Shown: one piece after another, positions 26,854 to 32,429 of the stretch
How the letters are laid out: every line of letters begins with the position of its first letter
Numbering within the stretch: the stretch's first letter is position 1
From: Escherichia phage PhiR44_2
Sequence record: PV340564
DNA length: 35,994 nucleotides
Strand: one strand, 5' to 3'
The notes under the pieces: model-generated
The model's database searches: none
The model's input: the letters and a program-made list of their open reading frames with translations, nothing else
Told to the model about the DNA's origin: nothing
Position numbers and translations under genes: made by a program

Positions 26854-27348
26854 TCAGAACAGCCCTTTAACTGAACTGGCCGCGCTGTTAAGAGATGATG
26901 TCACCTTATCTTTGAAGCCGGACAGCATATCGCTGAATGATGAGGATTGCAGGCGCTCCCGCAAATCCTCATCACAGCGTTCAAGGGTCAGTGAAAATTC
27001 TATCTTTTTCGCCTTACCGTAGCGATCAAACTCGGAGCGGGTCGTATTCGTTCCGGTCAGGACATACATGCCGTAAATCTGCCCGACACCATCAATCAGA
27101 GGCCAGGGGCGTCCTGTATATGCCTGCGTGGTCAGCAACGAAAGCGACACTTCGCCACCTGTAATTTCAGGATAAAGCACACCAGAAAGAACGATGCGAT
27201 CATCGCCTGCCCCGATATACTGCCAGCTTGCTGAACGGTTAACGCGTTCATTTTTCACATGCCGCCAGCTTTTGTTTTGCTGTAACTGCTGATGCGGCAA
27301 CGTGCGCAGCTCAAAAACAAACATGCCGTAGATCATCATCATGGCCAT
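26854..27348 (-). CDS. U: Tail protein, gpU-like
   Basis: N-terminus MMMIYGMFVFELRTLPHQQLQQNKSWRH resembles P2 U (recalled). Confidence 0.7.
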   Translation of the reverse strand: MAMMMIYGMFVFELRTLPHQQLQQNKSWRHVKNERVNRSASWQYIGAGDDRIVLSGVLYPEITGGEVSLSLLTTQAYTGRPWPLIDGVGQIYGMYVLTGTNTTRSEFDRYGKAKKIEFSLTLERCDEDLRERLQSSSFSDMLSGFKDKVTSSLNSAASSVKGLF

Positions 27349-27354
27349 GACTCC

Positions 27355-30732: not shown

Positions 30733-31245
30733 TCAGCCAAGCCCAAGCGCGGAACGGATGCGATCGGGCACAATGTCCTTGCCGTCCTTCCGGTAAATGA
30801 AGTTCAGCAGGTCAATCTCCCACAACGGACGATCGTTAACACTCAGCTTGTAGTAGGTGTTTTTAATGGCGTAAGTGTGTGATGTGGCTTCGCCCTGTTT
30901 GGCTTCCCCCATATCAATTTCCGTCACACGTCCGCGCATTTCGACTTCATACAGGTCGCTTTCTGCATCGGTGTAGTATTCACCCGCAAAACGCAGCAGC
31001 GTGCCGTCAATCGTGCCGCCATACTTAAGGAACAGCTCACGAACTGCGCCCCCCATGACAAAGCTCGCATCAAGCGCGGAGTCGTCCAGACCGAGATCAA
31101 TACTTACCGCTCCCATCATGCCACCACCCCGGTAGCTGTCGGTTTTGCGCGTCAGCTTAGGCAGAGTGACGGACGTCACCTTACCCACTTCGTTTTCACC
31201 ATCCACAAACAGCGTAAAAAAGCGAAGATGTTTTGGTACAGCCAT
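30733..31245 (-). CDS. FII: Tail tube protein, gpFII-like
   Basis: 170 aa immediately downstream of the sheath gene, overlapping start/stop. Confidence 0.85.
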   Translation of the reverse strand: MAVPKHLRFFTLFVDGENEVGKVTSVTLPKLTRKTDSYRGGGMMGAVSIDLGLDDSALDASFVMGGAVRELFLKYGGTIDGTLLRFAGEYYTDAESDLYEVEMRGRVTEIDMGEAKQGEATSHTYAIKNTYYKLSVNDRPLWEIDLLNFIYRKDGKDIVPDRIRSALGLG

Positions 31246-32429
31246 CAGGCACCTCCCAGCACCGCAAATGCGGGACCAAAGAATTCATCAGTAAACGACT
31301 GGTAAAGCTCCATGTCTTCCAGCGGGGGAACAGGCGTATATTTGTAGCGAATACGCACGCGCCCCTGACGTAAATTCGTGGTGCCGTTATCCACCACGTC
31401 ATACCAGCACGACGCCCCAATCAGTTTCCCGGCAGTAACCAGTGAATCCAGTTTTGCCCTGATAGCACTGATAACATCTTTCACGTTCGCAGGCGTCAGT
31501 GGACTGTCGATGGTTTCAAACTGCGCTTCCGCAATTGAATCAGCCAGCACCTGTGCGGTTCGGGTATACACCTCAAAGATGTAGGCGTTCGTTTCCGGTG
31601 TGCGGTTGCCCCAGAAGCGGAACCCGTTGCGACGAATAATGGTCGTGATTTCTTTGTTGTTGAGGCTGTTGGCATCACTGTCTTCGGCCTGCAACGACCA
31701 GAACACATGCCTGGACATCCCCAGCACATTTTTAACCGGAACGTTGGACAGCGATTTGTGCCAGCCCTGCTCATGGTCAATGTACGCACGAAGGCCGCAC
31801 GCATAGGCAGGCGCGGGGAACGTTTCGTTTTTGCCACTTTTCGGGTTGTAGGCGATGAAGTCCGGCCATAAGAGCATCACCTCACGTTCGTTGAATTTCT
31901 GGCGGTAGGTAATCGCCTCAGCCATCGTGTTACAGCCGTGACATGAGGCATACACAAACGCGCGCAGTTTACCCGCAATCACGCACAGGGATTTTGTTAC
32001 CGCCTCCGTGTCCAGCTCCGGCGCGGCCAGAATACGCGGACGGTATCCGATGCTTTCATCCTGCTCTGCAACAAGCAGCGCATACATCCCCGTATAGCTG
32101 CCGTCAGATTCAGAACCACCGATAACCAGTTGATCCTGCGTTTTTCCGTCTTCTTCTTTGTGTTCAGCCACGCGAACGACGATCACCTTTGTGCTCACCT
32201 GGTCTGCGATGGCCTTAAGCGCACGATAAAGCGTCCCCGTTGTTCCGCATTTTCCCAGCACGTCATTGACGCGGGTCAGCAGTGTGGGCTTGTTCAGCGG
32301 GAACAGCTCCGCATCCGCATCATCCGCCGTTGCCACGATACCGATAACACTGGAATCAACATCATTAATCGCTGTTACCAGGTCGGTACTTTCCGTAACA
32401 CGGGCACCATGAAAACGAGTTTCACTCAT
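31245..32429 (-). CDS. FI: Contractile tail sheath protein, gpFI-like
   Basis: 394 aa; motifs DADAELFPLNKP, GFRFWGNRT, YTPVPPLE match P2 FI as recalled. Confidence 0.9.
   Translation of the reverse strand: MSETRFHGARVTESTDLVTAINDVDSSVIGIVATADDADAELFPLNKPTLLTRVNDVLGKCGTTGTLYRALKAIADQVSTKVIVVRVAEHKEEDGKTQDQLVIGGSESDGSYTGMYALLVAEQDESIGYRPRILAAPELDTEAVTKSLCVIAGKLRAFVYASCHGCNTMAEAITYRQKFNEREVMLLWPDFIAYNPKSGKNETFPAPAYACGLRAYIDHEQGWHKSLSNVPVKNVLGMSRHVFWSLQAEDSDANSLNNKEITTIIRRNGFRFWGNRTPETNAYIFEVYTRTAQVLADSIAEAQFETIDSPLTPANVKDVISAIRAKLDSLVTAGKLIGASCWYDVVDNGTTNLRQGRVRIRYKYTPVPPLEDMELYQSFTDEFFGPAFAVLGGA

Follow-up and report, generated by a model that had tools for sequence, protein, structure and literature searches.

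An inherited inversion of the FI-to-U tail gene block in P88-like phages of the P2 family, and a predicted bidirectional late promoter between FI and D

In phages P2 and 186, the annotated records place FI-FII-E-T-U-D-ogr in the same direction as V-W-J-I-H-G. The P2 version is the FETUD operon (FI-FII-E/E'-T-U-D, promoter PF), with an annotated -1 frameshift in E/E', and its counterpart in 186 is J-I-H-G-F-D; in both phages an Ogr-type dyad lies about 80 bp upstream of FI, and ogr follows D. The Ogr-site consensus of P2 late promoters is TGT-N12-ACA (PMC3931495, citing Christie & Calendar 1985, Julien & Calendar 1995). The same seven gene products, a dyad similarly placed before FI, and an ogr gene after D are found in Escherichia phage PhiR44_2 (sequence record PV340564), whose analysed stretch of 35,994 nucleotides is referred to here as the window. 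In the window, however, FI, FII, E/E', T and U lie on the strand opposite to V..G and D-ogr, and D, no longer the last gene of the operon, needs a promoter of its own. This inverted FI..U block is the inherited, normal gene order of the clade to which the phage belongs, and the spacer between FI and D may hold a late promoter serving both directions.

The closest described relatives are P88, an inducible, plaque-forming and viable phage (PMC5285337), and Citrobacter phage phiSM, which is also viable, being released spontaneously and able to lysogenise K-12 (PMC6456863). (In the latter paper phiSM appears as a siphovirus, its tail being non-contractile; the genome, OR565851.1, is that of a P88-like member of the P2 family and encodes a tail sheath.) Over the 8.1-kb tail region (26000-34100), the window has 94-95% nucleotide identity to P88, P88_4B11, phiSM, Chuche, 500465-2, 503458 and 520873, the P88 alignment covering 99% of that interval at 95% identity; positions 1-25000 match these phages at about 96% nucleotide identity over 67-78% of their length, a coverage of 75-78% being that taken for the genus placement. 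On these identities the window is a P88-like prophage (genus Xuanwuvirus, Peduoviridae; P2 family), with the genus placement reflecting regional nucleotide identities and gene order rather than a whole-genome identity of the kind used by the International Committee on Taxonomy of Viruses (ICTV). Strands and order are identical to those of the window in all seven of these phages (H+ G+ / U- T- E- FII- FI- / D+ ogr+), as is the length of the FI-D spacer, 157 bp; the distal tail fibre H of P88 is unlike that of the window.

The contractile-tail module of P2-like phages (Peduoviridae) is complete in the window: FI, FII, E/E' with its -1 frameshift, T, U, D and Ogr/Delta. Every tail-module protein except E proper has a Pfam match, and the genes, with their evidence (ORF, open reading frame), are as follows.

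23310-26069, plus strand: H (ORF listing, Pfam).
26073-26600, plus strand: G, tail-fibre assembly, the last gene of the rightward V..H-G block and convergent with U (Pfam Caudo_TAP, E 2e-34).
26854-27348, minus strand: U, tail protein (Pfam Phage_P2_GpU, E 1.5e-38).
27355-30198, minus strand: T, tape measure, ORF from GTG 30198 (Pfam PhageMin_Tail, E 7e-59).
30149-30385, minus strand: E' frame, overlapping E (Pfam Phage_P2_GpE).
30313-30678, minus strand: E (ORF).
30733-31245, minus strand: FII, tail tube (Pfam Phage_tube, E 7.5e-47).
31245-32429, minus strand: FI, tail sheath (Pfam Phage_sheath_1, Gp18_domIII_N, Phage_sheath_1C).
32587-33696, plus strand: D, baseplate hub / late control D protein, divergent from FI (Pfam Phage_GPD).
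33739-33999, plus strand: ogr, late-gene activator, 42 bp 3' of D (Pfam Ogr_Delta).

By tblastn, G has 71-75% amino acid identity to the G proteins of P2 and P88, U is identical to P88 U (100%) and 44-46% identical to U of P2 and 186, and D is 99% identical to that of P88_4B11 and 48% to that of P2 and 186. The P88-type annotated start of T is ATG 30162, the gene being annotated at 2808 nucleotides in P88. The slippery heptamer TTTTTTG is common to P2 and the window, where T_TTT_TTG at 30367-30361 matches the E' frame; heptamer and both frames are seen in the sequence. The longest D ORF begins at 32455, with an N-terminal extension that is not conserved; ATG 32587 is preceded by the ribosome-binding site GGGAGGG and is the start annotated in P88_4B11, and given this start the 157-bp FI-D gap (32430-32586) of the first-pass annotation holds. 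The Ogr translation contains the cysteine motif CX2CX24CX4C.

That annotation, made from the letters and set against the P2 gene order, had placed U, T, E/E', FII and FI on the minus strand, convergent with G and divergent from D-ogr, and had taken this to be an inversion. ORFs and Pfam matches bear out the identities and strands, the annotated records show the P2 order that it gave to be right for P2 and 186, and the block is inverted relative to both phages: its proteins map by tblastn to the plus strand of P2 and 186, at just 32-48% identity, with the other genes collinear. The window thus has FI..U on the minus strand, and H, G, D and ogr on the plus strand, in place of a co-directional FI-FII-E-T-U-D operon. 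The mismatch is a difference of gene order, and not grounds for exclusion from the family as the ICTV defines it.

A second reading put forward at the same time was that the 5.6-kb segment had been joined in reverse in this single assembly, an idea that has nothing in its favour except the departure from P2 order. At 95% identity or more, 1358 of the 5426 complete E. coli genomes carry an unbroken FI-D junction (32200-32800), while the exact G-U junction (26400-27000) runs through at full length in 13 complete genomes, of which two reach 99.8% identity; one of these two, E. coli M00057, has the same gene order in its annotation by the Prokaryotic Genome Annotation Pipeline (PGAP). Twelve phage records and about 57 loci from other species share the order as well. 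Because both junctions are contiguous in so many independent complete genomes and phage records, mis-assembly is excluded, its probability being negligible.

How widespread is the inverted order? Relatives were gathered by tblastn with D against a phage collection and by a scan of D alignments with one genome per species (at least 80 loci), and the orientation of each locus was scored by tblastn with the tail proteins of the window. Over all loci scored (phage records plus the prophage loci listed), the order came out inverted in 63 and canonical in 18, with another 8 too incomplete for a decision. Inverted prophage loci made up 57 of the 80 matches listed, with three cut contigs likewise showing FI- beside D+, and among these matches they came from roughly 25 genera of Enterobacterales, including Salmonella, Citrobacter, Enterobacter, Klebsiella, Raoultella, Kosakonia, Kluyvera, Serratia, Erwinia, Pantoea, Pectobacterium, Brenneria, Edwardsiella, Hafnia, Yersinia (Y. 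aleksiciae), Providencia, Morganella, Xenorhabdus and Photorhabdus. A P88-like prophage with the same order and a D protein 95-98% identical to that of the window was also encountered on a 226-kb contig labelled “Vagococcus sp. WN89Y” (NZ_JBQPOM010000071.1); its assignment to a Gram-positive host is probably due to contamination or a mislabelled assembly.

Identity of D to that of the window separates the two orders perfectly among the loci listed, those at 61% or above all being inverted and those at 53% or below all canonical. The inverted order is the same in every sequenced P88-like phage, and its known genera are Xuanwuvirus, Senquatrovirus (Salmonella phage SEN4, D 63% identical), Reginaelenavirus (Klebsiella phage Kp4872-3, 70%) and Reipivirus (Klebsiella phage Kp4848-1, 71%). 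SEN4 and the two Klebsiella phage genera resemble the window in the inverted FETU block and divergent D; they differ in their tail fibres and in having D proteins only 63-71% identical. The canonical order is found in P2, 186, SEN8 (Felsduovirus, D 53%) and a Kapieceevirus (52%), and also in the outgroups Burkholderia AP3, Mannheimia 535AP1 and Pseudomonas Sirocco, so that the inverted state is the derived one. Neighbor-joining trees of D, FI, FII and U with Sirocco as root each gather the inverted loci into a single clade that contains no canonical locus. Since this holds in all four trees, the simplest account is a single ancient inversion, inherited vertically. The suggestion that a fixed inversion has separated D from its operon is therefore upheld by the shared order of the relatives and the recurrence of both junctions in complete genomes; the lineage in question is a large, old clade of at least four ICTV genera, in which the arrangement is the norm and not a peculiarity of this sequence.

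The same trees bear on whether the block was inverted in place or acquired. Phage genomes are mosaic, and the neighboring tail-fibre genes have been exchanged with Mu/P1-type phages, so a foreign FI..U cassette could have been brought in by recombination and have happened to enter reversed. FI, FII and U, however, are 44-47% identical to their P2 and 186 counterparts, similar to D (48%) and the head genes, and no sign of foreign origin was found for the block, its divergence from P2 being like that of D and the head genes. The clade found with D, which lies outside the block, is also the one found with the genes inside it (FI, FII, U), and the dyad of PF lies at its canonical distance from FI. 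Replacement of the module is on balance quite unlikely.

Another possibility is that FI..U is a programmed, reversible segment, flipped by the Gin/Cin/Pin-type invertase of P88, with both orientations coexisting. The left junction is of interest here. The annotated order in P88 and P88_4B11 is H+ G+ [G'- H'- invertase+] U- T- E'- E- FII- FI- D+ ogr+, and relative to P88 the window is missing about 1.95 kb between G and U (G', an H' fragment and the DNA invertase), with both flanking hairpins kept. The features remaining between G and U are:

26606-26625, no strand assigned: GC-rich hairpin directly 3' of G, with a T-run on the minus strand (terminator scan; identical in P88).
26626-26771, minus strand: remnant of about 145 bp from a further tail-fibre-assembly gene in inverted orientation, representing its 3' end (G'/U'-like; alignment).
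26815-26844, minus strand: hairpin resembling an intrinsic terminator (12 pairs and a T-run), downstream of U (terminator scan; kept in P88), which is likely the end of the leftward FI..U transcript.

The first-pass annotation had described the interval 26606-26845 as terminator hairpins; two T-run hairpins are indeed there, and the interval also contains the remnant. This aligns with the 3' end of P88 gp41 and with the U' of Mu and P1 to about 26770, and at its place in M00057 PGAP annotates a partial tail-fibre-assembly pseudogene. Positions 26009-26770 (G and the remnant) are about 80% identical in nucleotide sequence to the U/U' region of the invertible segments Mu G, P1 C and P7 (Gin/Cin), from which the window differs in that the invertase and second fibre arm are deleted. 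By comparison with P88, loss of the invertase and second tail-fibre cassette is a separate and recent deletion; with the cassette lost and only a 145-bp fragment left, the prophage is no longer able to switch tail fibres.

In P88 and several of its relatives a DNA invertase gene and an invertible tail-fibre cassette adjoin U, and a remnant of this cassette is kept in the window, which gives the idea of a reversible FI..U segment some initial appeal. No invertase ORF is present between G and U in the window, however, and SEN4 is also without an invertase, with no change in the orientation of the block in either; all 68 inverted-clade loci have it in one orientation relative to D. Unlike the Gin/Cin/Hin/Pin-type segments, the 5.6-kb FETU block has no crossover-site inverted repeats at its ends: the longest exact inverted match between the two junctions is 8 bp, a length equalled or beaten in 45% of shuffles. 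The short inverted repeats that were to be sought there as a trace of the inversion mechanism thus do not rise above chance and were rejected as such. FI would also lose its promoter geometry if the block were flipped. Invertase-mediated flipping was rejected on the uniform orientation and the absence of the enzyme from the window and SEN4, and is extremely improbable.

If the block was inverted once, and in place, how is D expressed? A close parallel is the pair of divergent late promoters PP and PO of P2 (p12/pV in 186), where one dyad of the TGT-N12-ACA type lies between divergent late genes. The P2 record annotates a single activator site (3057-3087) for both, with the dyad centre, 3071.5, exactly 55.5 bp from each of the mapped starts, 3016 and 3127. 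In the window, a comparable arrangement is predicted at FI/D rather than P/O:

32469-32474, minus strand: predicted -10 box of a leftward FI promoter, GATGAT, 43.5-48.5 bp left of the dyad centre.
32509-32526, no strand assigned: Ogr-type dyad TCT-N12-ACA (TCTCCCGCCACGGCGACA; TCT-CCCGCCACGGCG-ACA), centre 32517.5 (pattern match, conservation).
32558-32566, plus strand: predicted extended -10 box of a rightward D promoter, TG-c-GACCAT, its hexamer (32561-32566) 43.5-48.5 bp right of the dyad centre.

The two -10-like boxes are mirror images about the dyad, whose centre is separated by 88.5 bp from the ATG start codon of FI and by 69.5 bp from that of D. The predicted starts, at about 32462 (minus) and 32573 (plus), each 55.5 bp from the dyad centre, are 111 bp apart, which is the PP/PO spacing; starts and activation have been measured for the P2 pair, and those at FI/D are predicted.

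T(G/C)T-N12-ACA occurs just once in the FI-D spacer, and the relaxed form of the dyad pattern 18 times in the entire 36-kb window. Among 64 distinct FI-D spacers of the inverted clade that were aligned, the dyad, at its homologous place, matches at five or more of its six positions in 60 and at all six (TGT-N12-ACA) in 33, with N12 varying freely. In a gapless stack of 60 distinct related spacers, anchored on the dyad and having no indels between the -10 boxes, ATnnTC is conserved at -48.5 to -43.5 (its reverse complement, GAnnAT, being a -10-like box for FI), and TGn-AAnnAT, an extended -10-like box for D, at +40.5 to +48.5; TT(G) is found where the -35 element of the D promoter would be expected, and tCACGc is conserved on the FI side. 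A different dyad picked out by eye, CGCCGT-N9-ACGGCG (32503-32523), was dropped in favor of the T(G/C)T-N12-ACA frame because it falls within the variable N12 and is not conserved in related spacers.

The P/O spacer of the window has a second dyad, TCT-GACTGTTTTCTT-ACA (14959-14976, centre 14967.5). Its element TCT-N12-ACAACAAAAGC matches that of the FI-D spacer, and in both cases the sequence then reads ACAAAA(A)GC. With a unit at FI/D besides the one at P/O, the clade would have two bidirectional units. Other motifs noticed by eye as common to the two spacers (CCGTTCTCC, GATTACGCGCG) are arranged differently in each, both in order and in orientation, and relatives do not conserve them. The scaffold gene O itself merits a comment: its longest ORF runs from 15016, and a P2-like N-terminus (MANEKK...) and the ribosome-binding site GAGGGG point to ATG 15050 as its start, which fits a predicted PO start 55.5 bp to the right of the P/O dyad centre.

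The distance from dyad to FI is about 77-84 bp in canonical phages (including the experimentally defined sites of P2 and 186) and mostly 75-89 bp in inverted ones. It is alike in both orders, so PF travelled with the block, and the breakpoint lay just beyond the dyad. Since a single P2 dyad already serves the divergent PP and PO, a bidirectional late promoter may be inferred in the FI-D spacer, reading FI-U leftward and D-ogr rightward. The explanation proposed, which has a high probability, is that in the ancestor of a large enterobacterial P2-like clade FI-FII-E/E'-T-U was inverted once together with PF and its Ogr-binding dyad, and that this symmetric dyad would now drive both FI-U and D-ogr. 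The inversion and its inheritance are shown by the gene order of the relatives; the two-way promoter is predicted from conserved sequence geometry. The breakpoints lay between G and PF and between U and D, and the inversion put D directly behind the symmetric activator site of PF. One Ogr-bound dyad could then activate two mirror-image promoters: PF leftward, for a FI-FII-E/E'-T-U transcript ending at the 26815-26844 hairpin, and a new promoter, PD, rightward, for D and probably on into ogr 42 bp downstream, with D kept under late control. It seems somewhat more plausible than the contrary that the inversion was tolerated because the unidirectional PF became a second bidirectional, Ogr-dependent unit, and that ogr would have gained a short and direct positive-feedback transcript in the process.

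Several points weigh against this explanation. The dyad of the window matches the consensus at only five of six positions (TCT, not TGT), both of the -10 boxes predicted for it, GATGAT and GACCAT, are weak, and D would have a leader of only about 14 nucleotides. A generic sigma-70 scan of the FI-D spacer returned no promoter, although this is expected for activator-dependent promoters, for which such a scan is uninformative. The single event is read from neighbor-joining trees without bootstrap, on a sample limited to 80 loci, and the mechanism of the original inversion is unrecoverable from the junctions. Where the two transcripts start, how far the one from D reaches into ogr, and whether D depends on Ogr are each predicted from sequence.

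The most serious competitor accepts the inversion as real and has D transcribed from an ordinary, Ogr-independent promoter, with the dyad serving FI alone and its symmetry incidental. The conserved -35-like TT(G) and extended -10 (TGn) on the D side could make a self-sufficient sigma-70 promoter in some members of the clade. In all 60 distinct spacers of the stack, however, the D-side -10 keeps the exact mirror position of the FI-side -10, with no indels; the spacing equals the mapped geometry of PP/PO in P2; and the product of D is a late structural protein, required alongside those of FI..U. An Ogr-independent D promoter is accordingly possible but rather unlikely, and the symmetric, Ogr-bound dyad is preferred as the source of both transcripts.

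Some further features of the window lie outside these questions. In the early region, isrK (4370-4444, plus strand) and the C4 antisense RNA (4480-4567, plus strand) both match Rfam above the gathering score, forming an antisense immunity element of P1/P7 type within a P2-like prophage. Within 34060-35823, 3' of ogr, lies a region of the hok/gef-type small toxin, so named by analogy with the P88 and M00057 annotations, followed by ORFs of 110 and 297 amino acids. P88_4B11 shares these two ORFs, whereas in M00057 hok is followed directly by serS, so the right end of the element differs between close relatives.

The D gene of M00057 is called by RefSeq/PGAP as a protein of 263 amino acids, beginning 309 nucleotides inside an intact ORF of 369 amino acids (locus positions 14188-15297, corresponding to window 32587-33696), and in the top E. 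coli matches spanning the FI-D junction the sheath gene alone is listed beneath the match. From these observations, annotation in this clade seems systematically to miss the first third of D, a hint of truncated D calls in RefSeq.

Annotated public genomes from at least four genera already show the inverted arrangement. Papers on P88, phiSM, SEN4 and a related Serratia prophage turned up by a literature search carry no comment on gene order, an absence that is no proof of its never having been described; likewise, no description of a bidirectional FI/D unit following an inversion was found in the searchable literature. A bidirectional FI/D promoter would be a plausible addition to a known arrangement.

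About one complete E. coli genome in four carries a member of this very common group of prophages, in which the inverted order is standard, and for that reason the order should not be taken as an assembly problem or a rare rearrangement when it is met with. It also provides a clean marker that parts a large enterobacterial P2-like clade from phages of the P2, 186 and Fels-2 types. Beyond classification, it offers a testable case of a late operon split without losing co-regulation, a symmetric activator site being re-used in both directions; if the prediction is borne out, these phages would be a natural case in which a symmetric activator site has rescued a broken operon.

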